From Fibrobacterota bacterium (GTDB lineage: Bacteria > Fibrobacterota > Fibrobacteria > UBA5070), in the NCBI GenBank assembly GCA_016715065.1, contig JADKBN010000018.1, positions 100,280 to 164,279 on the forward strand: 64,000 nucleotides of DNA. Reading direction: 5' to 3'. Shown here one piece after another: positions 16,196-59,557 of this stretch. A program made the position numbers and the translations under genes. Under the pieces are notes generated by a model, which saw only the letters and a list, made by a program, of their open reading frames with translations, did not search any database and had not been told where the DNA came from. The number at the start of each line of letters is the position of its first letter. The stretch's first letter is position 1.

Positions 16196-16373
16196 CCGTT
16201 CGTCCTGAGGAGGCGCTGAAAGCGCCGTCTCGAAGGGCGAATGGCAGAATCCGTCGACACTTCGATAAGCTCAGTACTGGCTGAAAATCTTCGGATCGAC
16301 TTGGAATGGATACAAGCCGATCCCCCGTTCGCCCTTCGAGACGCCCATTCCATGGGCTCCTCAGGACGAACGG
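16196..16373. mobile_element. palindromic MITE/REP-like intergenic element, copy A
   Basis: Termini CCGTTCGTCCTGAGGAG...CTCCTCAGGACGAACGG. Inner inverted GTCTCGAAGGGCGAA / TTCGCCCTTCGAGAC. Each arm has its own small hairpin. About 100-bp central insert. Lies between convergent gene ends. Confidence 0.7.
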
Positions 16374-16407
16374 AAAGCCAAGCCTCCATGAGTTCGGCAG
16401 ACAGGGT

Positions 16408-17590
16408 TCAGAGTCGCGCGGCGATCTTGGCCAGGCCTGCCAGGGCCAGATCCGCCTGCTCGGCGGTCAATACCAACGGTGGCAACAAGCGCACCACGTC
16501 GCTTCCGGCTCGATAGATGATCAGGCCTTCCTCGCGGGCGGCCTCGATCACTTTGTTGGGATCGACCGCTACCCTGATGCCCAGGAGCATTCCGCGGCCG
16601 CGTACTTCCAGGAAAGGGCCAACTCCGGAAAGGGCCTCCAATCCTGACCGCAGACGCGAGGCCACCGCTCGGACGCCTTCCAAAAATCCAGGCTTCTCCA
16701 GCCGGTCCAACACCGCAAGTCCTGCGGCGATGGCCACGGGGTTGCCTCCGAAGGTGGTGCCGTGATCGCCCGCTTGGATCACTTCTGCCACGGCGCCCTT
16801 GAGAAGCACCGCCCCCAAGGGAAGCCCGCCACCCAATGGCTTGGCCAAGGTCACAAGATCCGGCGCCAATCCGGAAGCAGGAAAGGCGAACCATTCGCCG
16901 GTGCGCCCCAGGCCGGTCTGGATCTCGTCGCAAATCAGCAGGAACCCGTGGCGTTTTTGCAGCACGCAAAGCTCGGCGACAAATTCCGCCGAGGGCTCCA
17001 CCACTCCTCCCTCGGCCAGGATCGGCTCCAGGATCACGGCCGCGGTGTGGGCTCCGACGCATTCGCGCAACGATTCCACCGTGAGATCCGATCGCACGAA
17101 TCCCGGCAACATGGGGCCGAATCCGGTTTGCATCTTGTCCTGGCCGGTGGCGGCCAAGGCTCCGTAGGTGCGCCCGTGGAAAGATTGCGAAAAAGAGACG
17201 ATTTCATGGCGCCACGCCGAACCCTGGGCAAACCAGAACTTGCGGGCGAACTTGAACGCGGCCTCGTTCGCTTCGGTGCCCGAGTTGCAGAAAAAGGCCT
17301 TATCGAACGCCCCGTGGGAGCACAGGATGCGCGCCATGCGGCCTTGGAAAGGCGTGTAATACAGGTTCGAGGAGTGGGTCATCCGTGAAGACTGCTCATG
17401 GATTGCCGCGACCACAGCCGGGTCGGCGTGACCCAGCGCGTTGACGGCGATTCCCGAGGTGAGATCCAGGTATTTGCGACCCTCGACATCCCAGACCCAC
17501 ACGCCCTCTCCTCGTTCCAGGAACAAGGGCTGGCGTGCATAGGTTCCCAGCACCCATTGAGCATCGGTTTCGCGGATTTGCTGCGGCGTC
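16408..17590 (-). CDS. argD: class-III aminotransferase, acetylornithine aminotransferase-like
   Basis: PLP fold motifs LICDEIQTGLGRTG, TLAKPLGGGLP, GTTFGGNP. GGAGAGG RBS before ATGACG. Confidence 0.75.
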
Positions 17591-17689
17591 ATAACCTGTT
17601 GTTCCTCTCCATGCATTGCGCTTCGAACTTGGAATTTTCGGAAAACAAAAGGGAAACAGAACCTGTCCGTCTCCCTTGCCACGCTATTT

Positions 17690-17731
17690 CCGTTCGCTTC
17701 GAGGAAGGCGACCCGCCCTTGAGGCGAACGG
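17690..17731. repeat. 42-bp near-perfect palindrome with the same termini as the MITE family (CCGTTCG...CGAACGG); minimal family member
   Basis: CCGTTCGCTTCGAGGAAGGCGACCCGCCCTTGAGGCGAACGG, between rng and argD. Confidence 0.45.
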
Positions 17732-17761
17732 AAAGGCTTGCTTGCGCCTCCCAACCAGCAA

Positions 17762-27234: not shown

Positions 27235-28789
27235 TCAGGCCGTGAGCCACCGTCCAAGGTTGCGCTCGACCTTGTCGAACTCCACGCCCACTTTCACCAC
27301 CGTGCGTCCATCGGCATGCCAGGAAACCGCATAGCCCCGGTCTTCAATCTGCGCCAAGGCCTCTTCGGCTGTGCCATTGAGCTTGAACTCGAAAACGAAG
27401 ACGTGGGTCTCGGTTTGCACCACCGCGTCGGCGCGCCCCTTGGCGGATTTCAGTTCGGTCTGCAGGAATTGTCCAAGGAGAGTGAAGACCAGGTAGAACA
27501 CCACCTGGTAATGGCGCTCGGTGCGGTCACTCAGGTCATAAGGGATTTTTTCGAAGAACGCTCTCAGCCTCGTCAGGAAGGCATCCACATCCCCGGCTCG
27601 CAATTCTTGGGAAAACTTGGCGATGTGGAAGCCTCCACGCCCATTTTCCGCACCCGTGAAGCTGGGCAGCAGAAAATTCAAAAAACCGTTTTTGACCTCG
27701 TCGTTGGGATAACCCAATCGATAGAGACCCAGGTCCGGGTCGTAGTCCTGGATGGTGAGGTATCCACTTTGGTAGATCACTGGCAAAGGGCGGTTGGCAT
27801 CCAACCGATAGTCGGAAAATTCCGAAGCCTCCACCTCGATTCCATCCAGCTCGCGCAAGTCGCTGTCGGCTTCCTTGAGTAGCTCCACCAGAAAGGTCGG
27901 GGTACCGGTTTGAAACCAGTAATCACGCAGCTCGCCGGTGCGAAGCAGGTTCAGGGTACTGAACGGATTGAACACGCTCGGACCGCCCGGATGAAACCGG
28001 TAACCGTTGTACATCTTGCGCACATCGGCGAGCACGCGCTCGAAAGGGACTCCTCGCTTGGAAGCGATTTTTTCCAGTTCCGGCAGGAAATTCTCCAGCA
28101 ACTCCGGCTCGGTGATCCCGCAGACGGCGGAATAATCTGCTTCCACAGACAAATCGGTCAGTTGGTTCAGATCGCTGAACACACTCACTTGCCCGAACTT
28201 GGTCACCCCGGTCAGAAGCACAAACTTCAAGTGGGCATCCGCGCTCTTCAGAACCCCGTAGAAGGCCTTGATGGTCTTTTTGTACTCCTCCAACAATTCG
28301 GGACAACCAATCGCCTGGAGCAGGGGCTTGTCGTACTCGTCCACCAACACGATCACCCGACGGCCGGTCTTCTCTCTCGCTCGCTGGATCGCACCTAGGA
28401 AACGCCTTGAAAGGGTATCCTCGTCTGCCTTCGGCATCCCAAATCGTTCTTCCCAGCGGCACACATGGCTGTTCAGGATTGCAAGCAAGGCTTCCGGCGT
28501 ATCGTATTTCTCCGCGTTCAGATCCAGCCGGAGCACCGGATACTCGATCCAGTCTTGCTCCAGTTGTTCGATGGCGAGCCCCTTGAATAGCTCCTTTCTT
28601 CCTTCGAAGTAGGCTCCGAGCGTGGACGAAAGCAAACTCTTGCCAAATCGCCGCGGGCGAGAAAGAAAATAGACTCGACCTTCCGTGGCCAGCCGATGAA
28701 CAAAAGCTGTTTTGTCCACATACAGGTATCCATCCTCGCGCAGAGAAGGAAAATCCTGGATCCCGATGGGCAACTTCCGAAGAGCCATG
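27235..28789 (-). CDS. AAA-ATPase-like (PF09820-type) protein with C-terminal PD-(D/E)XK nuclease-like domain
   Basis: N-terminus MALRKLPIGIQDFPSLREDGYLYVDKT with Walker-A-like RPRRFGKS is typical of the predicted AAA-ATPase family; C-terminal PDDEXK_9-like region. Confidence 0.75.
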
Positions 28790-28816
28790 GCCCTAAGATA
28801 CCTCCCGACCGACCCC

Positions 28817-29591: not shown

Positions 29592-29714
29592 AAAACGCCG
29601 AACGCCGCATTTTTTTGCCGTTTATGAGGGATGCAGTCGAAGTGATCCGAACCCGAAGCCGTACTTCAGTACGGCGAGCGGTGAGGATCGCGAGAATGCG
29701 CCCTCAGAAATGGC

Positions 29715-29750
29715 AAAAAAAAGGGCGGCGAGGTAAACCTCGCCGCCAAA
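29715..29750 (-). terminator. intrinsic terminator downstream of mutL
   Basis: Minus-strand sequence GGCGGCGAGGTTTACCTCGCCGCC followed by CTTTTTTTTG. Confidence 0.65.
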
Positions 29751-31700: not shown

Positions 31701-31735
31701 CCACGCTCGAACTGGTAGGATGGCCAAACCTTCGA

Positions 31736-31871: not shown

Positions 31872-31889
31872 CGGAAGTCCAAACCCCGT

Positions 31890-45933: not shown

Positions 45934-45936
45934 GAT

Positions 45937-45984: not shown

Positions 45985-46076
45985 GGGGTCTACGAACGCG
46001 CCTGATCCGCGACGCCCACCGACAATATTCGTCGAACGTCACGTTTTTAAATGGGCAAACAAAATGGGGACCGCCA

Positions 46077-46134
46077 ACGGTTTCGTAACGGGCCAACGGT
46101 TTCGTAGAGACGCCCCGCCGGGGCGTCTCTACAA
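46077..46134. repeat. two 14-bp direct repeats (CCAACGGTTTCGTA) followed by a 29-bp perfect palindrome GTAGAGACGCCCCGCCGGGGCGTCTCTAC
   Basis: Read directly from the sequence between the convergent helicase and tonB ends. The palindrome is at 46106-46134. Confidence 0.8.
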
Positions 46135-46263
46135 TCGTTGGCGTCCGTATGACCGATGGCGTCCGATCAATCGTTCGGGTCAAACCAACCATTGGCGGGC
46201 CATCGACCGGCGGTCCACGCCGGTTTTGGCGTTCGGGGATTGCACCGGGTGGTTAACCGTTGT

Positions 46264-47013: not shown

Positions 47014-47414
47014 GGCCGCACCACCTTCAAGGCATACTTGGTGACGCCCGCACCGCGCACCAGATCGATGGCTCCCACCACCGACTGGTACTTGAGATCG
47101 CGATCGGCCCCGATCAGCACCTGGTGGTCGGGATTGCCCCGCACCGCCTGGGCCAGGTAGGTGGAAACCGAAAGCGAATCCGTGGCCTGCCCGTCCAGGT
47201 AGAGGTTCGCGTCCTTGTCCAGCACCAGCCCCGAAGCCTTGGGCGCCTGCGATCCGGCGTTGGCCGCCTTGGGGATCTGCACCATGATCTCGCGTTGGTC
47301 GATCACGGAACTGGTGATCATGAAGATGATCAACAGCACCAGGAAGATGTCCACCAGCGGAGTGATGTTGATCGAGGCGATCATCTCCTCGTCGTTTCCT
47401 GTCGCGGCGGCCAT
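47010..47414 (-). CDS. exbD: biopolymer transporter ExbD/TolR (module 1)
   Basis: INITPLVDIFLVLLIIFMITSS. 134 aa. Confidence 0.85.
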   Translation of the reverse strand: MAAATGNDEEMIASINITPLVDIFLVLLIIFMITSSVIDQREIMVQIPKAANAGSQAPKASGLVLDKDANLYLDGQATDSLSVSTYLAQAVRGNPDHQVLIGADRDLKYQSVVGAIDLVRGAGVTKYALKVVRP

Positions 47415-47415
47415 G

Positions 47416-48066
47416 TCAGGACTCCTTGGCGGCGGCGTTCAAGCTGCGCGCCACCACCAGGCCGCGCACCTCGCGGGAGCGGTCCAGGAGGATCTTGATG
47501 CGGTTTTTCAGGATATTGAAGGCCACCACGGCCGGAATGGCGATGATCAACCCCAGCGCAGTGGCTACCAAGGCGCGCGCGATGGCCACCATCACCTCGG
47601 TGGAGCCCTTGCCGCCGGCCTGCGCGAACTTGTTGAAGGCGATCAGGATACCCAAGACAGTTCCTGTCAACCCGAGGAACGGAGCGTTGGCGCCCACCGT
47701 GCCCAGAAACGACACGCCCGTTTCCAGGTGACGGCGTTCGGTGGACTCCTGCACTTCGTAGACCTTTTCCAGGGCTTCCGGCGAGAGCCCGATGTTCTCC
47801 TTGCCCAGCTTCACCACGCGGCCCGGCAGGGTGCGCTCGTCTTCCACGCTCACCTGGACGTGGCCCAGATCGCCGCCCTTGGAAAGACCCTGCGAAAGGA
47901 GCGTGCGCCATTTGTCGGCATCGCCGGTGGCCGCCGAGATGGCGTTCCAGCGCCAGACGAACAGGACCAGCCCGGCCAGGCCGAGGCCGGCAAGAACGGC
48001 GTAAAGGGCGATCTCGACGGTGAACAGCACCGGAGCGAGGGTTTGGATGAGACTGGTGGGATTCAT
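47416..48066 (-). CDS. exbB: MotA/TolQ/ExbB proton-channel protein (module 1)
   Basis: Three TM helices. LGLTGTVLGILIAFNKFA motif. Confidence 0.85.
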   Translation of the reverse strand: MNPTSLIQTLAPVLFTVEIALYAVLAGLGLAGLVLFVWRWNAISAATGDADKWRTLLSQGLSKGGDLGHVQVSVEDERTLPGRVVKLGKENIGLSPEALEKVYEVQESTERRHLETGVSFLGTVGANAPFLGLTGTVLGILIAFNKFAQAGGKGSTEVMVAIARALVATALGLIIAIPAVVAFNILKNRIKILLDRSREVRGLVVARSLNAAAKES

Positions 48067-48257
48067 TTTCTGGGTTCTCCGCGAGTGGATCGTTGGTTGT
48101 GGGTCGGCTGGGCGTTTCCCGGTTGGCGGGATCGGCGCCCCTTCTGAAGACTGGAACACCGTGCGCGCCGAAAACCGTCACCTCCCAGCGCGTTTTTTCG
48201 CGTTTTCCGTTCCACCATCGCCTCCCTCCGCTCCTGGGAGGAAACCCGAGCTCCGAC

Positions 48258-48290
48258 ACGAAAAAGCCCCCGTCCTGAGGACGGGGGCTC
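48258..48290 (-). terminator. intrinsic terminator after the lipoprotein-1 gene
   Basis: Minus-strand sequence GCCCCCGTCCTCAGGACGGGGGC followed by TTTTTCG. Confidence 0.6.
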
Positions 48291-48323
48291 CGCGGGAAAC
48301 GCGCAAGTCGGACCGAAGTGCGA

Positions 48324-49641
48324 TCAGTCGTCGCCGCCCACCATGCCCGCCGTGTAGTCGGTACCGATGCAGAACTTCTCCTCGAATCCCCTGCCGTCGT
48401 TGATGTGGCGATCCCATGCCCTCCTGCAAGCGGCTCCCCGCAGAGCTTCCAGGGGGATGGTGTCGGGGCTGGAGGTGCGCACGAAGAGCTGGAAGCTGTC
48501 CACCAGGGCTCCCGTGAAGTACCCTTGCCCCCCTTGGATGTTGGAGTACCGGGCCACGGTCTTGTCGCCGCCGGCGATCGCGGTCTTGGCCTGGCTGTAG
48601 GCGACGTAGCGGGCATCCACCGCGAAGTACCGCGTGAGGTAGCGTCCCGTGTAGCCGATGGCGATGTTGCTCGTGTAGATGTGGTCGGGCCACCCCACCA
48701 CGGAATTGGAGTAGGCGGCGTACGCTTCGAAGTATCTCGACCCTCCAGCCTGGTAGTCGGAAGCGGAATCCTCGGTGGACCGGTAGTCGTCCCCCACGGC
48801 CTTGCGCAAGGCCCTCACCAGGGCGGGCTCGATGCGGGCGCTGGTGGGATCGAAATACTGGACCGAGAACATCCCTCCGAATCCCGCTCCGCGACGTGTG
48901 GTGTAGACGTACTGGCGGTTGGTGAGGGTCACCCCCTGTCCGGCGATGTTCCTCACCAGGCGGGCATCGGAGTGGATGTACCAGACCGTGTCGCCCCACA
49001 CCACGGGACGCGTCACCGGAATCCCGGCGCGCACGCTGTCGATGGTCCCCAGACCCAGCTTCCAGCGCGCGACGGCGCCCGGGCGTTCGCGATCCCACTC
49101 CCGCAGCGTGGCGCTGTCGGAGGTCGGTTCGGCGCCACCGGCCAGGCTGGGGATCAGGGCCTCGATGGGGGCCTCGGGGGACTTCTCGCGCACCGACCAA
49201 TCCGAGGGCAGGGTGGTGGTGGCGTGCAGCGAGGTGGTGCGAATGTCCCGGCCCGAGGGCCAATCGCGGGAGGCGTTCCAGCGCACCTGGGCGTCCAGCT
49301 CGTAGGTGGCCCCGGCCTTGGCCAGGCGGGTCTGGGCCGGAACCCAGGCCACGCCGCTGCCGGACACCGGACGATACACGACGGAATCCGTCGGGTCGGA
49401 GGTGTTGCGCATGCGGATGGTCGCCTCCTCCACGAAGACGCGGGTGGAGTCGTACTTGCCCTGGATGGGGGTGGTCCGTTCCAGCCAGAGGGTGTCGAAA
49501 GGCATTCCGCCCACCACCATGCTGGACACGATGAGGTCGGGATCGCGTCCCACCTCGTCGGAGGGGTCGATGTTCCAGGGGCCGTTGCAGGCCCCGAGAA
49601 CCAGGGTCGAGACGAGAACGAAAGGGATCTTGGAGTCCATG
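48324..49641 (-). CDS. lipoprotein (DUF4249-like), partner of the TonB-dependent receptor (module 1)
   Basis: Lipobox MDSKIPFVLVSTLVLGAC. Sits 20 bp downstream of the receptor gene. Confidence 0.55.
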
Positions 49642-49660
49642 GCGTGTTTCCTTTGCCTTC

Positions 49661-52291
49661 TCAGAACTGGTATTCGTAGCCGAAGAAGAACGGCAGGATG
49701 GGGAACTGGTAGGTCTCCTCGCGCTTGGGAGGAGTGTCCTTGGTGTTGTAGTTGATCGCGTACACGTTTTCGCGGTCGGTGACGTTGATGATGGTGTAGT
49801 AGAAGCGCCACTTGCCGGTGCGTCCGAAGTCGAAGGGCGTCACGTCCAGGCGGAAGTATCCGGGGCGACGGTCTGCGTTGCGGGGATTGGCGATCACCTC
49901 GGTGTTGTTGTCGATGCCCGGGGTGGGCCATCCGCCCGCCACCTGCCCACCGTCCACGCCCTGCCCGGGTTCGTGGGTGCGGTCGTAGCCCTGGTAGTCG
50001 GTCATGGGCAGGCCCGAGTTGGCCGCCACCTGCACGCTGGAGCGGAAGAAGTCGGCCTTGGCCACCGTCCAGAAGGCGATCATGGGCGGGAACAGGCTGG
50101 TGAGGATCTTGGCCGCCAGGGGCACCTGCCTGCGCGATCCCGCCAGGGCCTCGTTCTTGCCGCGACCCACCCAGTTGAGTCCCACGGTGGACTTGAAGGT
50201 GTGGCGCTGGTCCCAGTCGGCCCAGTAGGGATCGAACTTCACGGTCTGGAGTTCGTTGACCAGATCGGGCCTTTGGAGGGCCGACCAGCCCACGGCGTAG
50301 CTGGCCGTGGCCGTCCACCAGCCGTCCTCCTTGGCCACCGAGGCCTCCGCCCCGGCGGCCCAGCCGTCCAGGCCCACGAACCGCTCGGCGAAGTAGTCGT
50401 TGCCGGTCGCGTCCTTGGCCTTGTCGTCCTGCTGGGTGGTGCTGGTCACCATCAGGGGCACGCCGTGGATGTCCTTGTAGTAGCCCTCCAGACCCACCCG
50501 CAGCCCCATGGACGTCAGATTCTGTCTCTCAAAGCCCAGCGAGGCCAGGTTCTGGGTGGTGGGGGTCATGGGATTCTTCGCGGCGTACCAGAATTCGGTG
50601 GGGATCTCCATGTCGGCGAAGCGGATGGAGGTCATGTACTGGGTGTAGTGCCCCCAGTGCAGGTCGGCCTTCCAATCGGGGGCGAAGCGCCAGGAGAAGC
50701 TCGCCCGGGGATCCAGGTAGATGTCGTGGACCAGGTCCATGTCGTTGTAGGCCCGCAACCCCACGCTCAAGGTCTTGGTGCTGTCCAGCGTCCATCGTTC
50801 CTGGAGCCAGGCCGAATGCAGGTCCGATTCCAGGTCGGAGGTGTTGGTGACCATGGCCACCGGGATGTCCTGGGTGAACAGCACCCCGAAGCGGTTGTAT
50901 TCGTAGCCGGCCGTGATGCGATGGAAGGGATTGGGGCTGTACTGCAGCTCGCCGCGGCCCGTCCAGGTCTCGATCTCGTTTTTCATCTCGAAGATGTCGG
51001 TGAAGGAGAAGACCTGGTCGTAGCGGGAATAGGCCCCGGTTCCGGTCAACAACCAGTCGCTGCCCAGACGCTTGCGCACGTTCACGGGGATCGCCCGGTT
51101 GCCCCAATCCAGCTTGAACGGTCCCAGGTCCAGCTTGTCGCGACCGTCGTAGGCGGACACCCTCACCGTGTCGCCGTCGCGCCCCCAGGCGGCAGAACCT
51201 TGCCAGTCCCAGAAGTCGTAGTCCAGCGCGAAGGTGGTGAGATCCAGGTCGCGGGCGGCTTCCAGGGCCGACCCGATCCAGGTGCGGCGCCCACCCAAGG
51301 CCCACGAAGCCTCGCCCTGGCGACCGTCGGTGGCCAGGCTCCCGGAAAGGGTGGTGAGGCGGAGCGACCCCTGCATCTTCGCCTTGGGGAGGCTGTCGGA
51401 ATCCGTCCGCGTCACGAATCCTTCCGTGGCGCGCAGGCCTTTGTCGGCCCAGCGGCGCAAGGTGCGGGTGGAATCCAACGTGGAATCGAAGTCGGAGGCA
51501 CCCACCTTGGAGCTCACCAGAAGCACGCTGGAGAGTCGGTTGCCGTACTTGGGATCGAACCCGCCCTTGTAGAAATCCAGCCCCCCCGTGGCGTCGGCCA
51601 AAAAGGTGCTGAACAGGCCACCGAAGTGCGCCGGGCTGTACACCGGGGCGTTGTCGAACAAGATCAGGTTCTGGTCGGAGCTGGACCCGCGCACGTAGAG
51701 CTTGGTGGAGAAGTCCGACGACTGCACTACACCCGGCAGAGCCTGCACGGCGCGGATCACGTCAGGTTCGGCCAGGCCCGGCAGGCGCTTGATGGTCTGG
51801 ACCGTGACGCGCTCCTGGCCCAGAACGCGGGGCGGGCGACGCTTGCCGCGCACCGTCACGGTATTGCCCGCCGACGACCTCACCACCTTGGCGCTGGAGG
51901 GCGCTTGCAAGGCGGTGGAATCGAAGCGCGTGGTGTCCACGATGGTGCGGATGGTGTCGCGGGTCTCCACCACCGAATCGATCTTCACTTCCAGCGGCGC
52001 GATGTCCAGGGTGTCGAATCCCTGCGGCCGGATGGGGGTGCAGAGCTTCTGGCCACCCGCCAGAAGGCAAAGCTCGTAGCTGCCGGTGGCGCGCCGGAGG
52101 CTGTCGGTCTGGACACTGGCCAGGAATTTGCCGGTGGAATCCATCCGTGCTTCCACGCCCTCCAGCGTGACTTGGGTTCCCACCGGCGCGGAAGAACGCA
52201 CCACCAGAGGGAAGGTTCTGGGCTCCAGGGCGGCTTGGGCCCCCAGGGACCCCACGATCGAACAAACAAGGAACAGGGCGATTCGACGCAT
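49661..52291 (-). CDS. TonB-dependent outer-membrane receptor with N-terminal carboxypeptidase-regulatory-like domain (SusC-like architecture), module 1
   Basis: Signal MRRIALFLVCSIVGSLGAQA. Plug region. C-terminal FFFGYEYQF. About 875 aa. Confidence 0.8.
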   Translation of the reverse strand: MRRIALFLVCSIVGSLGAQAALEPRTFPLVVRSSAPVGTQVTLEGVEARMDSTGKFLASVQTDSLRRATGSYELCLLAGGQKLCTPIRPQGFDTLDIAPLEVKIDSVVETRDTIRTIVDTTRFDSTALQAPSSAKVVRSSAGNTVTVRGKRRPPRVLGQERVTVQTIKRLPGLAEPDVIRAVQALPGVVQSSDFSTKLYVRGSSSDQNLILFDNAPVYSPAHFGGLFSTFLADATGGLDFYKGGFDPKYGNRLSSVLLVSSKVGASDFDSTLDSTRTLRRWADKGLRATEGFVTRTDSDSLPKAKMQGSLRLTTLSGSLATDGRQGEASWALGGRRTWIGSALEAARDLDLTTFALDYDFWDWQGSAAWGRDGDTVRVSAYDGRDKLDLGPFKLDWGNRAIPVNVRKRLGSDWLLTGTGAYSRYDQVFSFTDIFEMKNEIETWTGRGELQYSPNPFHRITAGYEYNRFGVLFTQDIPVAMVTNTSDLESDLHSAWLQERWTLDSTKTLSVGLRAYNDMDLVHDIYLDPRASFSWRFAPDWKADLHWGHYTQYMTSIRFADMEIPTEFWYAAKNPMTPTTQNLASLGFERQNLTSMGLRVGLEGYYKDIHGVPLMVTSTTQQDDKAKDATGNDYFAERFVGLDGWAAGAEASVAKEDGWWTATASYAVGWSALQRPDLVNELQTVKFDPYWADWDQRHTFKSTVGLNWVGRGKNEALAGSRRQVPLAAKILTSLFPPMIAFWTVAKADFFRSSVQVAANSGLPMTDYQGYDRTHEPGQGVDGGQVAGGWPTPGIDNNTEVIANPRNADRRPGYFRLDVTPFDFGRTGKWRFYYTIINVTDRENVYAINYNTKDTPPKREETYQFPILPFFFGYEYQF

Positions 52292-52395
52292 CGGTGTCTC
52301 CGCGGTGGTGTTGTCTACCCTCAATAGGACACCAACGAAACCCCAATCTGTCACCCGGTCACCATAAATTTCCGTAAAGTCGCCCGTGCGATCTC

Positions 52396-52523
52396 CGTTC
52401 GTCCTGAGGAGCGAGGCCATGCCTCGCGTCTCGAAGGGCAAGGGTTGGCGCATTCGACCAATCGTCTTGGCGAGTCTGCGCCGTCCGCCCTTCGAGACGC
52501 CTACGGCTCCTCAGGACGAACGG
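52396..52523. mobile_element. palindromic MITE/REP-like element, copy D (between tonB-2 stop and receptor-1 start)
   Basis: CCGTTCGTCCTGAGGAGCGAGGCCATGCCTCGCGTCTCGAAGGGCAA...CGCCCTTCGAGACGCCTACGGCTCCTCAGGACGAACGG. Confidence 0.7.
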
Positions 52524-52550
52524 CATCAGATCCACTTGAATTCAATCCCG

Positions 52551-53309
52551 TTATCCGTCCAATCGGAACCGGTATTGTTTTTTGAAACTGCACGGCACCG
52601 CGCGGCCCAGTTCCACCAAGGGTTTGAATTTGGTGGCACGGATCGCCGCCTGGACGGACTTGTCGAAATCCGTCCCTCCGCTGCGCAGGATCTTGATGTC
52701 CGAGACCTTTCCCTGGTCATCCAGCGTGATCAGCACGTCCACCACCGCTTCCACGCCTTGGTCTTCCGCCCATTGCGGGTATTCGGGCTGGACCGCCTGG
52801 CTCACCTGCACATCGAAGTTCGATTGCACGGGAGCGGTGGGCAGCGGCGGTGGCGCCTTCTTCACGGTGGTGTCTGCCTTGACCATCAAGCTGTTGCCCG
52901 TGGCCACCGCGAATCCACCGTTGGCGGAGGTTCCATCCGCCGGAATGCCAAATTGTGGCGGCGGCGGGTCCGGCGTGGGCGGCGGCGGCTTCTGGTCCGG
53001 GTCCGGAGGCGTCTTGACCGGAGGCGGGATTTCCTTGGGCGGCGGCGGTGGTGGAGGCAATGCGGGCGGAGGCGGTGGAGGTGGCTCTTCCTTGACGTCA
53101 ATAAACGTCACCATGTCGTCCAAGGGCACCACATCGCGCAAGGTGACCGCCAAGCCGAAGATCGCTCCCCAGAAGGCGAGAAACACCCCGACCGCGATCC
53201 ATTCCTTGCGCCCAAGTCCAGGTCGAGGAGTGGCTGGCACCCGCAGGCTGGGGGGCACCGGACCCATCGCCCCTTTCCGGCGAACCCGGCGAAGCGACGA
53301 GCCGTTCAC
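52551..53309 (-). CDS. tonB: energy transducer TonB (module 2)
   Basis: Paralogue of the tonB at 46264 with the same architecture and a longer Pro-rich spacer. ATGA overlap with exbD. Confidence 0.8.
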   Translation of the reverse strand: MNGSSLRRVRRKGAMGPVPPSLRVPATPRPGLGRKEWIAVGVFLAFWGAIFGLAVTLRDVVPLDDMVTFIDVKEEPPPPPPPALPPPPPPPKEIPPPVKTPPDPDQKPPPPTPDPPPPQFGIPADGTSANGGFAVATGNSLMVKADTTVKKAPPPLPTAPVQSNFDVQVSQAVQPEYPQWAEDQGVEAVVDVLITLDDQGKVSDIKILRSGGTDFDKSVQAAIRATKFKPLVELGRAVPCSFKKQYRFRLDG

Positions 53310-53710
53310 GGACGGACCACCTTCAAGGCGTACTTGGTGACGCCCGCCCCGCGCACCAGATCGATGGCTCCCACCACCGACTGGTACTTGAGTTCGCGGT
53401 CGGCTCCGATCAGCACCTGGTGATCGGGATTGTCGCGCACCGCCTGGGCCAGGAATGCCGAGATGGAAAGCGAATCGGAGGCCTGGCCGTCCAGGTAGAG
53501 GTTCCCGTCCTTGTCCAGTACCAGTCCGGAGGCCTTGGGCGCTTGCGATCCGGCGTTGGCCGCCTTGGGGATCTGCACCATGATCTCGCGTTGATCGATC
53601 ACGGAACTGGTGATCATGAAGATGATCAACAGCACCAGGAAGATGTCCACCAGCGGCGTGATGTTGATCGACGAGATCATCTCGTCGTCGGCTGCGGTCG
53701 ATCCGGCCAT
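53306..53710 (-). CDS. exbD: ExbD/TolR (module 2)
   Basis: Read by eye, it matches the module-1 ExbD at most of its 134 positions. Confidence 0.85.
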   Translation of the reverse strand: MAGSTAADDEMISSINITPLVDIFLVLLIIFMITSSVIDQREIMVQIPKAANAGSQAPKASGLVLDKDGNLYLDGQASDSLSISAFLAQAVRDNPDHQVLIGADRELKYQSVVGAIDLVRGAGVTKYALKVVRP

Positions 53711-53711
53711 G

Positions 53712-54362
53712 TCAGGACTCCTTGGCGGCGGCGTTCAGGCTGCGGGCCACCACCAGACCGCGCACCTCGCGGGAGCGGTCCAACAGGATCTTGATGCGGT
53801 TTTTCAGGATGTTGAAGGCCACCACGGCCGGAATGGCGATGATCAAGCCCAACGCCGTGGCCACCAGGGCGCGTGCGATGGCGACCATCACCTCGGTGGA
53901 CCCCTTGCCGCCGGCCTGCGCGAACTTGTTGAAGGCGATCAGGATACCGAGGACAGTTCCTGTCAACCCGAGGAACGGGGCGTTGGCGCCCACCGTGCCC
54001 AGAAACGACACGCCCGTTTCCAGATGGCGACGCTCGGCCGACTCCTGCACTTCGTAGACCTTCTCCAGCGCTTCCGGCGAGAGCCCGATGTTTTCCTTGC
54101 CCAGCTTCACCACGCGGCCCGGCAGGGTGCGCTCGTCTTCGATGGTCACCTGCAGATGGTCCAGATTCGCACCCTTGTCCAGATCCTTGGAAAGCAAGGC
54201 GCGCCATTTGTCGGCATCGCCGGAGGCCGCCGAGATGGCGTTCCAGCGCCACACGAACAGCACCAGCCCGGCCATGCCGAGACCGCCCAGCAGAACGTAC
54301 AGGGCGATTTCGATGGTGAACAGCACCGGGGCGAGGGTTTGGATCAGGCTGGTGGGATTCAT
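53712..54362 (-). CDS. exbB: ExbB/TolQ/MotA (module 2)
   Basis: MNPTSLIQTLAPVLFTIEIALYVLL... Nearly identical to module 1. Confidence 0.85.
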   Translation of the reverse strand: MNPTSLIQTLAPVLFTIEIALYVLLGGLGMAGLVLFVWRWNAISAASGDADKWRALLSKDLDKGANLDHLQVTIEDERTLPGRVVKLGKENIGLSPEALEKVYEVQESAERRHLETGVSFLGTVGANAPFLGLTGTVLGILIAFNKFAQAGGKGSTEVMVAIARALVATALGLIIAIPAVVAFNILKNRIKILLDRSREVRGLVVARSLNAAAKES

Positions 54363-54410
54363 GCGATGGTTTCTCCTATGGTCGGGTTGTTGTTGCGGTA
54401 ATGGAAAGGC

Positions 54411-55739
54411 TCAGGAGCGAGGGCCGTCGCCGCCGCTTCCGACAGGCGCAGCCTTGTACTTGGTGCCGGCGCAAAAGGACGTGTCGAAATCGTCGCCGTC
54501 CTTGATGTGGTTGTCCCAGGCGATCCGGCAGGCCGCCGCGCGCAGGGCCGGAATGGACAACGTGTCCTTGGTGGGCGACTTCACGTAGAGCATCACGCTG
54601 TCGGCCAAGGCGCCGGCGAAATACCCGCTGCCTCCGCGGACATTGGTGTAAGGGATCGTGGTGCGGTCTCCGCCTGCAATGGCGGTCATGGCGCGGTTGT
54701 ATGAAACGTAGTTGGGATCCACCGAGTAGTAGACCATCCAGTTCGGGCCCGTGTAATCCAAGGCGAGATTCGAGATCAATCCGATTTCCGGCCAGCGGTA
54801 GATCAGGCTCTCGTAGCTCCCGTAGGGCCCGAACCCGTATCGCGAGTTTCCTGCTTGGAACCTACGGGCGGAGTCCTGGGTGGTCGACTTCTCGTTGCCA
54901 CGGGCCGCGCGCATCGTCTGGGAGATGGGGTTGTCGATCCGCGCCCGGGTTGGATCGAACCGCTGTACACCGAAGGCTCCTCCGAACCCGGCGCCATGTT
55001 CGAATTCCACCACGAATTCGCGGAAAGCCAATCCGACATTCTCTCCGGCAAGGCTCGTCACTCGGGGAAACAGCGTGGGAATGTACCACACCGTGTCGCC
55101 AGAGGCGATCTTGCGGAAGGTCGGCAGCCCCCTCGACAAACTGTCCAGCGTGGCAACGGTCAGTTTGTAACGCGCCACCACTCCTGGAATCGCGGAATCC
55201 GCCGTTTTGAGTACGCTGGTATCCACCAGCACCCCGGCCCCCAGCGCCAAGAAGGAGACCATCGCTTCCACCGGTGCCTGGATGCTGTCGGAAACCGACC
55301 AAGCCACAGGCACCGTGGTGGTCGCCGAAAGTTCGGTCAGACGCATGTTGGTGGCGGAAGGCCAGTTCTGCGAGGCGTTCCAACGCACGCGGGCCCGCAG
55401 GGTGTAGGTGGCCCCGGCGGCAACGGGGTGTGCACGGGCGGGAAGCCAGGCCACGGCGCTTCCCGGTGCGGGAAGGTAGCTGACAGAATCCGACGGATTC
55501 CCGTCGCGGGTCACGACGATGGAGGCTTCGTCCACGAACTTCGTGGTGGAGTCGTACTTCCCGGTCAGTGGCGTGGTGCGCTCCAGCCATAGGGTATCGA
55601 AGTTCCTGCCCCCGATGGAAAACAGCGAAACGAAAAGGACCGGATCGCGGTCGACCTCGTCGGAGGGCATGAGGTTCCAGGGGCCGTTGCAGGAGGCGAA
55701 CGCCAGGAGGGAAGCGAAAGCGAAATGTTTGATCTTCAT
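54411..55739 (-). CDS. lipoprotein (DUF4249-like), module 2
   Basis: Lipobox MKIKHFAFASLLAFASC. Paralogue of the lipoprotein at 48324. Confidence 0.55.
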   Translation of the reverse strand: MKIKHFAFASLLAFASCNGPWNLMPSDEVDRDPVLFVSLFSIGGRNFDTLWLERTTPLTGKYDSTTKFVDEASIVVTRDGNPSDSVSYLPAPGSAVAWLPARAHPVAAGATYTLRARVRWNASQNWPSATNMRLTELSATTTVPVAWSVSDSIQAPVEAMVSFLALGAGVLVDTSVLKTADSAIPGVVARYKLTVATLDSLSRGLPTFRKIASGDTVWYIPTLFPRVTSLAGENVGLAFREFVVEFEHGAGFGGAFGVQRFDPTRARIDNPISQTMRAARGNEKSTTQDSARRFQAGNSRYGFGPYGSYESLIYRWPEIGLISNLALDYTGPNWMVYYSVDPNYVSYNRAMTAIAGGDRTTIPYTNVRGGSGYFAGALADSVMLYVKSPTKDTLSIPALRAAACRIAWDNHIKDGDDFDTSFCAGTKYKAAPVGSGGDGPRS

Positions 55740-55760
55740 CGGAGGGGTTCCTTTGCCGGC

Positions 55761-58418
55761 TCAGAACTGGTATTCGTAGCCGAAGAAGAACGGCAAGATG
55801 GGAAACTGGTAGGTCTCCTCGCGCTTGGGCGGATTCTTCTGGGTGTCGTAGTTGATCGAGTAGACGTTCTCGCGATCGGTGAGATTGATGATCGTGTAGT
55901 AGAATCGCCACTTCCCGGTGCGCCCGAAGTCGAAGGGGGTCACGTCCAGTCGGAAGTAGCCAGGACGCCGATCCACGTTTCGGGGATTGGCGATGGTGGC
56001 CGTGTTTTCCTGCAATCCCATGGTGGGGCCGCCCGCCCCTTGACTTCCGTCCACCCCCTGCATCGGCTCGTGGACGCGGTTGTAGCCCTTGTAGTCGGTC
56101 ATGGGCAGCCCCGAATTGGCCGCCACCTGGATGCTGGAACGGAAGTAGTCGGACTTGTCCAGGGTCCAGAATGCGATCATGGGCGGGAAGAAGCTAGTGA
56201 GGATCTTGGCCACCAGCGGCACCTGCTTTCGCGTTCCCACCAAGGCCTCGTTTTTGCCGCGTCCCACCCAGTTCAAGCCGCCGGTGAGCTTGAAGGTGTT
56301 GCGCTGGTCCCAATCGGCCCAGTAGGGCTCGAAGGCGGTGTTGACCAGCGCGTCGGAATAGTCGCGACGCCGCAGCGCCGACCAGCCCGCCGCATAGCTG
56401 ACGGATCCTGTCCACCAGCCGTCATCCTTGGACAGCGCCGCTTCCAGGCCCATGGCCCAACCGTCGAGCTTCTGGAAGCTCTCGGCGAACAGATCGTTTC
56501 CCGACGCCTGGATGGACGAATCCCTGGCTTGGGAGACGGAATTTGCCAGCAGCGGCACGGCGTAGATGTCCTTGTAATACCCCTCCAACGAGGCGCGCAA
56601 TCCCAACGGGCCCCAGTTCTGGCGCTCCACGCCCAACGAGGTCAGCCACTGGGTGGTGGGCTCCATCGGGTTTTGCGCCGCGTACCAGAACTCGGTGGGG
56701 ATCTCCATGTCGGCAAACCGGATGGAGGTCATGTACTGGGTGTAGTGGCCAAAGTGCGCATCCGCCTTCCAGTCCGGAGCGAAGCGCCAGGTGAACCCGA
56801 TGCGCGGATCCCAGGAGAGGTCGTTCACCAGATCCATGTCGTTGTTCACCCGCAATCCCACCGACACGGATTTTGTCGTGTCCAATATCACGCGATCCTG
56901 CAGATACACGGCGTGCAGATCCGATTCGGTCTTCGATTCGAAGCTGATGCTGGCCACCGGGATGTCCTGTCGGAACACAACATCGAAACGATTGAATTCG
57001 TATCCGGCCGTCAACCGGTGCTCCGGGACCGGGGTCCACTGCAGCTCGCCGCGCCCCGTGTAGGATTCGATCTGGTTGGCGAACGTGAAGATGTCCGAAA
57101 AGCCCACCACCTGGTCGTATTTGGAATAGGCGCCGGTGCCGGAAACCACCCAGTCGCTGCCCAGGCGCTTGCGCACGTTCACCGGGATGGCCCGATTGCC
57201 CCAGTCGGCCCCGATCAATCCCAGCCCCAGCTTGTCGCGGCCGTCGTAGGCGGAGATCCGCACCGTGTCGCCCGCGCGCCCCCAGGCTGCGGAAGCTTGC
57301 CAGTCCCAGAAGTCGTAATCCAAGGCAAGCGTGGTCCAATCCAGGTCCCGGGCCGCTTCCAATGCAGTTCCGATCCAGGTGCTGCGCGCCCCGCCCGACC
57401 ACGAGACCTCGTTTTGCCGTCCGTCGGTGGCGATGCTTCCGGAGAAGGTGGTGAGCCGCAGCGACCCCTGCATCCTGGCCTTGGAAATGCTGTCGGAATT
57501 TGTCCTGGTGACGAATCCTTCCGTCGCGCGCAGGCCCTTGTCGGCCCAGCGGCGCAAGGTGCGGGTGGAGTCCAACGTGGAATCGTAGTCGGAGGCGCCC
57601 ACCTTGGAGCTCACCAGAAGCACGCTGGAGAGGCGGTTTCCGAACTTGGGATCGAAGCCGCCCTTGTAGAAGTCCAGTCCTCCCGTCGCGTCGGCCAGAA
57701 ACGTGCTGAACAGACCGCCGAAGTGCGCCGGGCTGTACACGGCGGCGTTGTCGAACAGGATCAGGTTCTGGTCGGAGCTGGAGCCGCGCACATAAAGCTT
57801 TGTGGAAAAGTCCGACGATTGCACCACACCCGGCAAGGCCTGCACGGCGCGGATCACGTCGGGTTCGGCCAGGCCGGGAAGCCGCTTGATGCTCTGCACC
57901 GTCACGCGCTCCTGCCCCAGCACGCGCGGAGGCCTGCGCTTGCCACGCACGGTCACGGTGTTTCCCGCCGACGACTTCACCACCTTGGCGTTGGTGGGGG
58001 CTTGCATGGCCGCGGTATCGAACCGGGTGGTGTCCACGATGGTGCGGATGGTGTCGCGGGTCTCCACCACCGAATCGATCTTCACCTCCAAGGGCGCGAT
58101 GTCCAGGGTATCGAATCCCTGGGGCCGGATGGGGGTGCAGAGCTTCTGGCCGCTCACCAAAAGGCACAGCTCGAAGCTGCCCGTGGCCCGGCGTAAACTG
58201 TCGGTCTGGAGGCTGGCCAGGAACTTGCCGGTGGAATCCATCGCGGCGGGGATGCCATCCAGGGTGATTTGGCTGCCGACCGGGGCGGAAGACCTCACCA
58301 CCACAGGGACGCTCTTCGGGGTCGTGCTGGTGGTTGCCATTGCGGAATCCACACTCGCGGCAAAGACCTCCGCGCCTGCGCAGGCAAGCAACATCAGGCA
58401 GAATATCGTTCGGTTCAT
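55761..58418 (-). CDS. TonB-dependent receptor (SusC-like architecture), module 2
   Basis: Signal MNRTIFCLMLLACAGAEVFA. Same C-terminal FFFGYEYQF. Diverged paralogue of receptor 1. Confidence 0.8.
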   Translation of the reverse strand: MNRTIFCLMLLACAGAEVFAASVDSAMATTSTTPKSVPVVVRSSAPVGSQITLDGIPAAMDSTGKFLASLQTDSLRRATGSFELCLLVSGQKLCTPIRPQGFDTLDIAPLEVKIDSVVETRDTIRTIVDTTRFDTAAMQAPTNAKVVKSSAGNTVTVRGKRRPPRVLGQERVTVQSIKRLPGLAEPDVIRAVQALPGVVQSSDFSTKLYVRGSSSDQNLILFDNAAVYSPAHFGGLFSTFLADATGGLDFYKGGFDPKFGNRLSSVLLVSSKVGASDYDSTLDSTRTLRRWADKGLRATEGFVTRTNSDSISKARMQGSLRLTTFSGSIATDGRQNEVSWSGGARSTWIGTALEAARDLDWTTLALDYDFWDWQASAAWGRAGDTVRISAYDGRDKLGLGLIGADWGNRAIPVNVRKRLGSDWVVSGTGAYSKYDQVVGFSDIFTFANQIESYTGRGELQWTPVPEHRLTAGYEFNRFDVVFRQDIPVASISFESKTESDLHAVYLQDRVILDTTKSVSVGLRVNNDMDLVNDLSWDPRIGFTWRFAPDWKADAHFGHYTQYMTSIRFADMEIPTEFWYAAQNPMEPTTQWLTSLGVERQNWGPLGLRASLEGYYKDIYAVPLLANSVSQARDSSIQASGNDLFAESFQKLDGWAMGLEAALSKDDGWWTGSVSYAAGWSALRRRDYSDALVNTAFEPYWADWDQRNTFKLTGGLNWVGRGKNEALVGTRKQVPLVAKILTSFFPPMIAFWTLDKSDYFRSSIQVAANSGLPMTDYKGYNRVHEPMQGVDGSQGAGGPTMGLQENTATIANPRNVDRRPGYFRLDVTPFDFGRTGKWRFYYTIINLTDRENVYSINYDTQKNPPKREETYQFPILPFFFGYEYQF

Positions 58419-58543
58419 CGAGTGCACCCGGCGAATGGTATGTGTTTCCATGTTCTCCACACGAATAGAAATCTTGCGCGGGAGCGACTCGGAAATCCTG
58501 CAACGCAGGTTGCTGGAAAAAGTAGGTTGAACCCAATACCAAC

Positions 58544-59419
58544 ATGAGCAACGAACTGGTTCATTTCCTGCGTGGCGATTCCACGCGCCTGGACGGCAGG
58601 CTGGTGGCGATCGCCAAGGTCACCAGCCCGCTCACGCACGACCACCCCGGCAAGGGCATGGTCCATCGCGGTCTTCTGTCCGTGCAAGGAAACTACCGCG
58701 ACCAGCACACCATGGCGGAATTCTTCCGGATCGAATTCGGGCTTTCCATGGAAAGCGGCATCGAAGAAATCATCGAGCAGGCCCGCCAAAACGGAGGCAT
58801 CGAAGGGGCGCTGGATCCCGAGCAGGTCCGCGAGCGGCTGCGCAACATGGGCGACTCCCAGTACCTGCCCATCCCCGCCAAGGTCATCCGCGTGCCCAGC
58901 CTGGAGGCTGCCTCCGCCATGGACGGCGACGTGGTCTACCTGGGCGAGTTCGGCGATTTCCAGTTCGCCCACATGGCGGTCAACGCATTTCCCATCCTGT
59001 ACCAGTCGCGGTACCGGGAACAGGAACGCGGCGCCATCGCGCTGCAGATCGAGACCATGCTCGAGTTGTTGTCGCCACCTTCCGAGCCTGGCGAGCCGGC
59101 GGCACCCACCCTGGAAACCTTCCAGGGCAACATCGAAGACCACCTCTTGCGCACGATCCTCCCGGATCTGCTTTATGCCGCCGAGGGAAGCTCGGATGCC
59201 GAGGCCGCCCTGAACCGATTCCAAGCCTTCATGTCGCCGCATCTGTATCCTGGTGATGTGCAACGGATGCTGGAACTCGTGCCCCAGGTGCGCCACGGCG
59301 ACCACGAGGCCCTCAAACTGCTGGACCTGTTGGTGCGCAAGGTGGCCGCCATCCAGCGGGAAGACTGGAAGACCCTGGAAACCCTGCGACGGGAGCTGGG
59401 CGAGTCCGGAACCCCCTGA
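58544..59419 (+). CDS. hypothetical protein
   Basis: 291-aa intact ORF with coding-like composition. Divergent from receptor 2. No recognisable motif. Confidence 0.4.
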   Translation: MSNELVHFLRGDSTRLDGRLVAIAKVTSPLTHDHPGKGMVHRGLLSVQGNYRDQHTMAEFFRIEFGLSMESGIEEIIEQARQNGGIEGALDPEQVRERLRNMGDSQYLPIPAKVIRVPSLEAASAMDGDVVYLGEFGDFQFAHMAVNAFPILYQSRYREQERGAIALQIETMLELLSPPSEPGEPAAPTLETFQGNIEDHLLRTILPDLLYAAEGSSDAEAALNRFQAFMSPHLYPGDVQRMLELVPQVRHGDHEALKLLDLLVRKVAAIQREDWKTLETLRRELGESGTP

Positions 59420-59432
59420 ACGCCAAGGCAAG

Positions 59433-59557
59433 CCGTTCGTCCTGAGGAAGGGCGCAGCCCTGTCTCGAAGGGCGGCGGCGACGCGATGGACCCAACATCT
59501 TGTGGATTTGTCGCCACTGCTCGCCCTTCGAGACGCTACGCTCCTCAGGACGAACGG
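59433..59557. mobile_element. palindromic MITE/REP-like element, copy E
   Basis: CCGTTCGTCCTGAGGAAGGGCGCAGCCCTGTCTCGAAGGGCGG...TCGCCCTTCGAGACGCTACGCTCCTCAGGACGAACGG. Confidence 0.7.

Follow-up and report, generated by a model that had tools for sequence, protein, structure and literature searches.

Among non-coding features of bacterial genomes, repeats of the repetitive extragenic palindromic (REP) type are some of the most common, and only for the GTAG-type families is an enzyme that mobilises them known, the REP-associated tyrosine transposase (RAYT). In the REPIN/RAYT system (REPIN, REP doublet forming hairpins; Bertels and Rainey 2011, PMC3116915), as in the bacterial interspersed mosaic elements (BIMEs) of E. 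coli, the mobile unit consists of two short hairpins inverted around a short spacer. CGTC-type REPs, which dominate in Alphaproteobacteria, 'apparently lack a dedicated transposase', in the words of a 2013 survey (Di Nocera, De Gregorio and Rocco 2013, PMC3733652). Here we describe a family of palindromic elements dispersed over a 64-kb stretch of a Fibrobacterota genome (assembly GCA_016715065.1, contig JADKBN010000018.1), called the window below. These elements are very probably mobile, REPIN-like selfish repeats, and their basic unit is, in other genomes, statistically associated with a small gene encoding a GIY-YIG nuclease. On balance, we lean towards the composite view that they are geneless, non-autonomous hairpin repeats most likely mobilised by such a nuclease. 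This is a REPIN-like repeat without a RAYT and with a specific, testable candidate partner, and it is this lead, more than the repeat alone, that carries the interest.

A structured family of hairpin doublets

The window contains six copies of the element in 64 kb, all of them intergenic, and extrapolation from this number would give a few hundred copies per genome. They are listed here together with the longest direct repeat that flanks one of them.

16196–16373: inverted doublet of 178 bp, left unit 16196–16244, right unit 16325–16373
17690–17731, minus strand: degenerate single unit, a 42-bp palindrome (inverted-repeat hit I13, fold −27.9 kcal/mol)
31736–31871: inverted doublet of 136 bp (hits I2, I19 and I22; the imperfect inverted repeat reaches 31730–31877)
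45937–45986, plus strand: single unit, or 'half copy' (fold −35.6 kcal/mol on the plus strand)
45915–46005, plus strand: 19-nt direct repeat around this single unit, GGTCTACGAACGGGCCTGA at 45915–45933 and GGTCTACGAACGCGCCTGA at 45987–46005
52395–52523: inverted doublet of 129 bp (hits I4 and I23; fold −94 kcal/mol, z −12)
59433–59557: inverted doublet of 125 bp (hit I12)

The terminal 17-mer CCGTTCGTCCTGAGGAG has nine matches with at most one mismatch in the window, when 0.35 are expected and none of 100 shuffled sequences reaches nine. Eight of these form the pairs 16196 (+)/16357 (−), 31736 (+)/31855 (−), 52395 (+)/52507 (−) and 59433 (+)/59541 (−), while 45937 (+) is unpaired. The inner box GTCTCGAAGGGCGAA occurs nine times inside the copies and 12 times in the whole window (3.3 expected), and units matching CTGAG..TCGAAG are found 12 times as opposed to 1.4 in shuffles. 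An independent inverted-repeat scan of the whole window returned the same elements as its strongest pairs (I1, I2, I4, I12, I13, I19, I22 and I23). The palindromic intergenic family proposed in an initial annotation, made from the sequence alone, is borne out, and its four full copies and one half copy are all present, with the correction that the third full copy starts at 52395 and not at 52396. The 42-bp palindrome, to which the same termini had been ascribed, shares the 7-nt ends CCGTTCG/CGAACGG and degenerate inner boxes, but it has no 17-nt terminus within three mismatches. The possibility that the copies are fragments of one larger duplicated region is ruled out by their unrelated flanks.

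The basic unit is a hairpin of about 50 nt that reads CCGTTCG-TCCTGAGGAG-(private stem-loop)-CGTCTCGAAGG-GCGAACGG, with the consensus CCGTTCG-YCCTGAG...TCGAAGGR-CGAACGG, and a full copy is made of two such units inverted around a variable centre of 40–80 nt. In the subfamily present in the window, the private stem-loop occupies the position of the loop of the simple form. It had been claimed that each arm carries a different private hairpin, which holds in general, with the sole exception that the single unit at 45937 and the left arm of the doublet at 52395 have the same hairpin. As expected from the claim that the elements would fold as RNA, the full copies give very stable structures (−82 to −106 kcal/mol, z = −6.7 to −12.3) that are similar on both strands, and the single unit at 45937 folds alone. 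Within the unit stem, CCT/AGG pairs surround TGAG opposite CGAA, which amounts on both strands to a conserved tandem G.A/A.G step in a Y-GA-R context. Such steps are stable in nucleic-acid hairpins, and one is predicted to form in these units.

Support for this architecture also came from the variation among units. A loose count of pairs around GAGC..CGA was too noisy, and a stricter one was used on the 358 distinct units present in all fetched DNA, in which the three pairs outside the CTGAG..TCGAAG core are complementary in 74–85%, with several types of pair. At the position pair marked in CTGAG(G)AG/GT(C)TCGAAG, 165 units have G..C, 31 have T..A and 5 have another combination, a switch that may reflect two inherited subfamilies and not repeated compensation. 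The private inserts are highly diverse (172 distinct among 201), and 59% of them have at least three terminal Watson–Crick pairs, compared with 8% of shuffles. In Sphingomonadales the private hairpin often holds another CTGAGC-N3-5-GTCGAAG core, so that the motif is nested in itself. The repeat family is real and structured, with a hairpin architecture that shows compensatory changes.

The initial annotation did not recognise the consensus as that of a described family. In Rfam 15 only the tRNA-Pro of the window scores above gathering and no match overlaps any element even at E ≤ 5. A search of papers for the element sequence gave only chance matches in eukaryotic primers. A hammerhead ribozyme (CUGAGGAG..helix..GUC..CGAAG) was considered and rejected, because the order of its parts does not fit, no GAA directly follows helix II and Rfam reports nothing at E ≤ 5. 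An integron attC site was rejected on reading the sequence, the ends being at odds with RYYYAAC/GTTRRRY and the copies being dispersed, not arrayed.

Spread of the doublets between genomes and spacers

The motif is not restricted to the window. A scan with the exact 17-mer, one genome per species, identified at least 108 stretches of other genomes, and in nearly all of them the second box is found at the right distance. Among the matches listed, hosts are mostly Sphingomonadales (Sphingopyxis, Novosphingobium, Sphingomonas, Aurantiacibacter, Tsuneonella and others), followed by Cypionkella, Legionella, Coxiellaceae, Lysobacterales and unclassified Alpha- and Gammaproteobacteria, and three Fibrobacterota metagenome-assembled genomes (MAGs) have units of the GGGCG form seen in the window. 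A few matches without the second box, in Streptomyces, Synechococcus and a deltaproteobacterium, were discarded as due to chance. Doublets account for 80 of the elements in other genomes, with a modal length of 100–125 bp. The family is spread across phyla. Mis-binning of MAGs could inflate the list of hosts, but the presence of the family in Fibrobacterota is established by the 64-kb window itself, whose HisS is 74% identical to a Fibrobacterota MAG protein and 52–54% identical to Fibrobacter and Fibrobacteria proteins. The window also encodes SprA (type IX secretion), the locus of one relative carries a Fib_succ_major domain, and the contigs that match the window at 99.9% identity are from wastewater metagenomes.

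On a Legionella contig, a GC-rich unit is set in AT-rich DNA. Units are also found on three viral contigs of IMG/VR (L001 at 6434, L002 at 8255 and L003 at 1722), and clusters of open reading frames (ORFs) from the capsid region are common to these three and to the alphaproteobacterial MAG contigs L014 and L019. Prophage DNA, or DNA resembling that of gene transfer agents (GTAs), is a possible vehicle between lineages. A search of PLSDB plasmids with a window element gave no match.

Evidence for mobility came from the hisS–mutL spacer, which in the window is 196 bp long and owes 136 of these to the doublet at 31736. The orthologous spacers in relatives are as follows.

Relative with HisS 82% identical: spacer of 67 bp, no element
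Relative with HisS 88% identical: spacer of 79 bp, no element expected at such a length (gene positions only)
Relative with HisS 85% identical: spacer of 7 bp, no element
Relative with HisS 74% identical: spacer of 193 bp, no element
GCA_035913415.1, HisS 91% identical: spacer of 292 bp, a different doublet

No copy of the element is present in 55 kb from three relatives. The doublet of GCA_035913415.1 (locus L199) lies 117 nt past hisS, as opposed to 18 nt in the window, and matches the window's doublet at 59433 in both arms, both private hairpins and length, not the copy that the window has in that spacer. Since this is a copy of another type at another position, two independent insertions have occurred in one spacer and the doublet travels whole. 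That orthologous spacers are either empty or differently occupied indicates that the doublets are mobile and recent. The elements of the window thus mark recent insertions in a poorly known phylum and, as had been suggested, they make up a dispersed family of the REP/BIME/MITE kind, with unrelated flanks and copies in other genomes.

The more precise label depends on the insertion borders. No consistent target-site duplication of 2–6 bp was found in 67 doublets (the best case, 11 of 67 for 2 bp, required shifted borders), which makes the family REPIN-like rather than a classical MITE (a miniature transposable element with inverted repeats). Flanking direct repeats were seen for two window copies only, 7 bp around the doublet at 31736 (CCAAACC at 31724–31730 and 31879–31885) and 19 nt around the unit at 45937, where the two copies are identical at 18 of 19 positions and the end of the helicase ORF falls in the first. 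Bacterial MITEs such as Correia/NEMIS, ERIC, RUP and Coxiella QMITE1/2 (PMC5896051) resemble the window elements in size (50–500 bp), terminal inverted repeats, intergenic location, co-transcription and the existence of gene-bearing relatives with the same ends. The window copies have outer inverted repeats of 16–49 nt and sizes of 125–178 bp, and cassettes of about 400 bp with the same kind of ends encode the GIY-YIG nuclease discussed below. However, besides the lack of a consistent target-site duplication, there is no sequence similarity to these MITEs and the gene-bearing relative has no transposase of a known family.

The position of the copies invites another explanation, which is that they are regulatory hairpins selected by the host, acting in 3′-end protection, as RNase III sites that uncouple cistrons, in termination or in the binding of a DNA-structuring protein. 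All six lie just past stop codons or between co-directional genes, their folds are very stable, and effects of this type are established for E. coli REPs, as summarised in the CGTC survey (PMC3733652). Yet position is not conserved, the orthologous spacers of relatives being empty or holding a different copy, and the unit adjoins unrelated genes in unrelated phyla. In addition, the copies are not followed by an adjacent T-tract, and a scan of the region 45000–60500 classed none of those it covered as terminator-like, on which ground an identity as intrinsic terminators was also rejected. We therefore consider host selection very unlikely as the origin of the family, and a secondary effect on mRNA is possible and compatible with a selfish origin.

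Within the REPIN-like class, the likeness extends from the build, of which the window offers four doublets, to the intergenic location, the coexistence of presumably many copies with single remnants, the missing target-site duplication and a candidate enzyme gene that is flanked by repeats and kept at a conserved site. The differences are that the window unit is about 50 nt long and includes both a nested private hairpin and a tandem G.A step, that the gene found between repeats encodes a 92-residue GIY-YIG nuclease and not an HUH tyrosine transposase, and that the family crosses phyla whereas REPIN–RAYT systems are described as vertically inherited. A classical system, in which a RAYT (an IS200-like tyrosine transposase) encoded elsewhere in the genome mobilises the doublets, would account for their REPIN-like build (two inverted hairpin units, a short spacer, intergenic sites, no target-site duplication), and only 64 kb of the host genome are visible. 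Nevertheless, the cognate RAYT that had been anticipated was not found: six-frame translations of the window and of 1.2 Mb of element-bearing loci contain no NPVRAGL-type motif (a crude regular-expression test), and no RAYT-like family is present among the element-adjacent ORFs clustered from 111 loci. The GTAG head of RAYT-linked REPs is missing from the units, which begin CCGTTCGTCC. For the alphaproteobacterial CGTC-type REPs too, no dedicated transposase had been found (Di Nocera, De Gregorio and Rocco 2013), and a literature search on RAYT plus Sphingomonas returned nothing relevant. Mobilisation by a RAYT seems quite improbable.

According to the survey (PMC3733652), CGTC REPs have the same main hosts (Sphingomonas, Sphingobium and Sphingopyxis, among others), are mostly dimers downstream of genes and are without a known dedicated transposase, and most arms described here do contain CGTC (CCGTT-CGTC-CTGAG). 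The survey's text defines them by an unpaired CGTC tag (or TGTC/CCTC), a stem of 8–9 bp starting A-T, T-A, a loop of 4–5 nt and a CCA tail. In the window units, CGTC, CATC or TGTC at positions 6–9 is predicted to be paired with GGGCG or GGAC and thus lies inside the stem and is not an unpaired tag, and the stem (CCGTTCGTCCTGAG..) is longer, interrupted by the nested hairpin and without a CCA tail. Judged against that text definition, the window family is set apart.

A small GIY-YIG gene between the hairpins

When ORFs were clustered over the 111 element-bearing loci, one small family next to elements turned out to encode a GIY-YIG nuclease (7 of 111 loci by clustering, eight by tblastn). At L093 and L101, a 279-nt GIY-YIG ORF lies exactly at the centre of an element that reads unit, 9 nt, gene, inverted unit and measures 387 bp in total. 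The arrangement unit–gene–inverted unit recurs with other private hairpins at L063, and on a Legionella contig a remnant of the gene is followed by an arm of the window type. The protein of these cassettes has 92 residues, a GIY-YIG domain (PF01541, E = 3e-17) and belongs to the UPF0213 family, which includes the PDB entries 1ZG2 (profile E = 1e-18) and 1YWL; NCBIfam has no model for this subfamily, called subfamily 1 below.

This association was then measured in loci chosen without regard to repeats, by fetching the best 80 of at least 579 metagenome relatives with the GIY-YIG protein alone. The forward motif is found no more than 160 bp upstream of the gene in 53 of 76 loci and the reverse motif no more than 170 bp downstream of it in 64 of 79, and 46 of 75 loci have the motif on both sides, against a background of 4 in 663 windows per orientation taken from the same loci at least 400 bp away. 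An inverted-repeat score around the genes was poorly controlled because each unit is itself palindromic, which makes the motif counts the cleaner statistic. In 23 of the loci the gene occupies the same orthologous site, with nrdR on one side and an RNA methyltransferase gene on the other, and the remainder are in about 50 different contexts. The cassettes have a median outer size of 395 bp and inverted ends that begin either CCGTTCG, as in the window elements, or CCGCTCA. In four contexts or more, the gene is bordered by ends of the window subtype (CTGAGGAG or CTGAGTAG plus a private hairpin), and at L153 the gene-flanking units have short hairpins and GGGCG ends like those of the window. The arrangement is also present in an isolate, Sphingomonas parapaucimobilis YK209, in the order nrdR, unit, a gene annotated as 'GIY-YIG nuclease family protein' (WP_347092679.1), inverted unit and methyltransferase. 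The units are thus statistically associated with the small GIY-YIG gene, which takes the place that the initial annotation had reserved for a RAYT.

At the nrdR–methyltransferase site, the GIY-YIG frame continues without a stop across the right-hand unit and on into the gene for the SpoU/TrmJ-like RNA methyltransferase in four species (L013 1292–2527, L063 25–1206, L093 544–1641 and L101 6555–7733), and the annotation of S. parapaucimobilis YK209 (L201) has them as separate genes with a 4-nt overlap. This read-through could be due to chance in GC-rich DNA or to a real fusion or coupling.

A scenario that would accommodate these observations can be proposed. Two units inverted around a short variable centre form a mobile doublet, as in REPINs, and such doublets inserted recently into intergenic spacers of the Fibrobacterota genome, where they would be co-transcribed with the flanking genes and, once folded, could give four-way hairpins of great stability. 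In other bacteria, such units form the inverted ends of cassettes of about 400 bp whose only gene is that of the 92-residue UPF0213-type GIY-YIG nuclease. The nuclease would recognise or cut the folded hairpin or cruciform, leading to the copying of cassettes and geneless doublets alike, and would thereby play the part of RAYT for REPINs. The window copies would probably be geneless derivatives mobilised in trans by the nuclease. Mobilisation by the nuclease, the presence of such a gene in the Fibrobacterota host and any effect on mRNA are inferred. The claim that the nuclease mobilises the repeats is tentative, and we judge it to fall just short of evenly balanced.

Structure-specific nucleases of the Slx1 type cut branched DNA, an activity that would fit a cruciform or hairpin target. 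The family to which the cassette protein belongs, UPF0213/COG2827 (E. coli YhbQ, B. halodurans BH0048, PDB 1ZG2), has been treated as one of repair nucleases (PMC1839093), with no link to repeats in the literature searched. More generally, no paper was found that links GIY-YIG genes with REP, REPIN, MITE or bacterial inverted repeats, in a search outside of which most subscription journals fell.

Free-standing GIY-YIG homing genes, such as I-TevI and Seg of phage T4, offer a different precedent, and in fungal mitochondria there are endonuclease ORFs associated with palindromic GC-rich or double-hairpin elements. The cassette gene might likewise be a homing endonuclease gene that parasitises the repeats, the enzyme cutting empty doublets and the gene being copied into their centre by repair, in which case the doublets would spread by another route (through recombination, through a different enzyme or by horizontal transfer with DNA of phages or GTAs). 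Common to these systems is a small GIY-YIG gene embedded in short mobile palindromes or adjoining them, and spread by break and repair is plausible. The position of the cassette gene is precisely the variable centre that separates the two inner boxes. In the same vein, geneless doublets are far commoner (80 doublets, with the gene in 2), some of the genes are one-armed or adjoin a complete doublet (L013, L153 and L156), and there are units on the viral contigs L001–L003. However, known homing enzymes carry a separate DNA-binding domain and have one gene or intron site, while the cassette protein is a bare catalytic domain of 92 residues whose presumed target is a dispersed hairpin repeat. Homing would leave the spread of the doublets unexplained, and the stability of the gene at single conserved sites in many species (nrdR–methyltransferase, and mdh–sucD for the second subfamily described below) is more like that of a vertically inherited partner, as for RAYTs. 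We consider homing unlikely.

Several points nonetheless weigh against mobilisation by the nuclease. The association leaves the direction of dependence undecided, so that the gene could be a homing gene targeting pre-existing repeats, and the protein is not known to act on these hairpins. Published discussion of the COG2827 genes of Caulobacter, of which one is SOS-regulated, treats them as UvrC-like repair nucleases (PMC1839093). Because a single orthologous site accounts for about a quarter of the GIY-YIG loci, these are not independent, and the metagenome loci come without taxonomy. The link with the gene was observed in other genomes; in the 64 kb of the window, tblastn with the GIY-YIG protein detected none (best E = 0.03). 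Finally, the 7- and 19-nt direct repeats that flank two window copies are left unexplained by the model.

A second GIY-YIG subfamily strengthens the interest of the candidate. Its members, of 96 residues (L043 5845–6132 and L060 3302–3586), are flanked by classical CGTC REPs such as CGTCATCCCGGCGAAGGCCGGGACCCAG, usually as doublets, and three further ones (L202, L212 and L216, gene at 1201–1491/1494) lie between mdh and sucD with CGTC REP doublets beside them. Subfamily 1 being found with CTGAG..TCGAAG units and subfamily 2 with CGTC REPs, nuclease subfamily and repeat type go together, which by analogy is the pattern known for RAYT and REP. L212 also has a decayed second copy of the gene between further CGTC REP doublets. 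Most contigs carrying the genes for 96-residue proteins, among the matches listed (P0121–P0240), are shorter than 1.5 kb, which would be expected if the flanking repeats break metagenome assemblies. That UPF0213-type GIY-YIG nucleases are the missing mobilisers of a large class of REPs, comprising the CTGAG..TCGAAG family and, via the second subfamily, CGTC REPs, is a bolder idea, possible if rather doubtful.

The family thus offers a concrete and testable candidate, a gene for 92 residues placed between hairpins, matched to them by subfamily and kept at single sites as RAYTs are, and the second subfamily bears on the published claim that CGTC REPs lack a dedicated transposase. If the proposal is correct, a new class of enzyme would be added to prokaryotic mobile DNA, with genes annotated as UvrC-like repair nucleases being reassigned. 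The ~400-bp arrangement of hairpin, nuclease gene and inverted hairpin would represent a novel type of prokaryotic mobile element, one of the smallest that are autonomous, with a GIY-YIG nuclease at its core and not a DDE, HUH, serine or tyrosine enzyme. Its geneless passengers, transferred into Fibrobacterota, would be the copies in the window.

Neighbours of the copies and other features of the window

The gene contexts that had been assigned to the copies (CBM/argD, rng/argD, hisS/mutL, helicase/tonB, tonB2/receptor and hypothetical/tRNA-Pro) agree with Pfam, which gives CBM_4_9 and aminotransferase class III, RNase E/G and aminotransferase, HisS and MutL, a NERD-UvrD-like helicase and an unknown, TonB and TonB-dependent receptor, and a hypothetical protein next to tRNA-Pro. 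The doublet at 16196–16373 is surrounded by convergent 3′ ends (stop of the CBM_4_9 gene at 16158, stop of the class-III aminotransferase gene at 16408). Its arms of 49 nt are 84% complementary (hit I1), its RNA fold is −106 kcal/mol (z −10) and its centre of 80 nt contains a degenerate third unit core, CTGAGCTTATCGAAG, at 16260–16274 on the minus strand. On the minus strand, the palindrome at 17690–17731 reads CCGTTCG-CCTCAAGG-GCGGGTCGCC (hairpin)-TTCCTCGAAG-CGAACGG, between the RNase E/G stop at 17762 and the aminotransferase start at about 17616. The doublet at 31736–31871 is placed 18 nt past the hisS stop (31890) and 42 nt ahead of the mutL start (31693). The stop codon of the helicase gene (45931–45933) is immediately 5′ of the unit at 45937–45986, the sequence of which is CCGTTCGTCCTGAGGAG-CGAGGCCATGCCTCG-CGTCTCGAAGGGCGAAGG. 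The neighbours of 52395–52523 are both on the minus strand, namely the TonB stop at 52551 and the start of a TonB-dependent receptor (signal peptide from about 52291), and 59433–59557 lies between a hypothetical ORF (stop 59419) and tRNA-Pro(CGG) at 59685–59757 on the minus strand.

All six copies are therefore past a stop codon or between co-directional genes, and they are intergenic because the true starts of mutL (31693), the receptor gene (about 52291) and the aminotransferase gene (about 17616) are outside the elements. These starts were corrected using gene calls on identical metagenome contigs and N-terminal translations. ORF finders run the receptor (52291–52453, minus) and the aminotransferase (17616–17754, minus) upstream through the elements, creating spurious N-termini such as MRQPLPFETRGMASLLRTNG, or PFETRGMASLLRTNG at the receptor start. 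Peptides derived from the elements (PFVLRS.., SFET.. and LLRTNG) are likely to give rise to false 'hypothetical proteins' when genomes are annotated, and the elements, which create such ORF extensions, may also break metagenome assemblies.

The window contains other repeats as well. A tandem array at 28814–29385 (131-bp unit, 4.4 copies, 97% matching) adjoins an AAA-ATPase_like/PDDEXK_9 gene (27235–28941) and is collapsed in metagenome assemblies of the same strain. Just past it, an AT-rich inverted repeat, TTTTTTTGCCGTTTATGAGGG/CCCTCAGAAATGGCAAAAAAA, at 29610–29721 and 29717–29792 overlaps a weak Rfam match to the Burkholderia sRNA ncS54 (E = 0.006; 30.4 bits, where the gathering score is 43) that is probably due to chance. 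In the relatives with HisS 82–88% identical, the whole block of genes to which the AAA-ATPase_like/PDDEXK_9 gene belongs, between mutL and sprA, is absent. A 22-nt palindrome, GTCTCCATCTTGCGATGGAGAC, unrelated to the hairpin family, occurs at 13397–13418 and again, 76 nt away, at 13495–13516, and a 14-bp stem without mismatches, its arms GTAGAGACGCCCCG/CGGGGCGTCTCTAC separated by a 1-nt gap, is found at 46104–46132 upstream of an ORF starting at 46156. Lastly, paralogous gene pairs at 47010–48177 and 53306–54410, next to TonB-related genes, share identical 61-bp stretches (47313–47373 and 53609–53669) and identical promoter-like sites (TGGACA-16-GATCAT), and correspond to a duplicated tonB-associated cluster.

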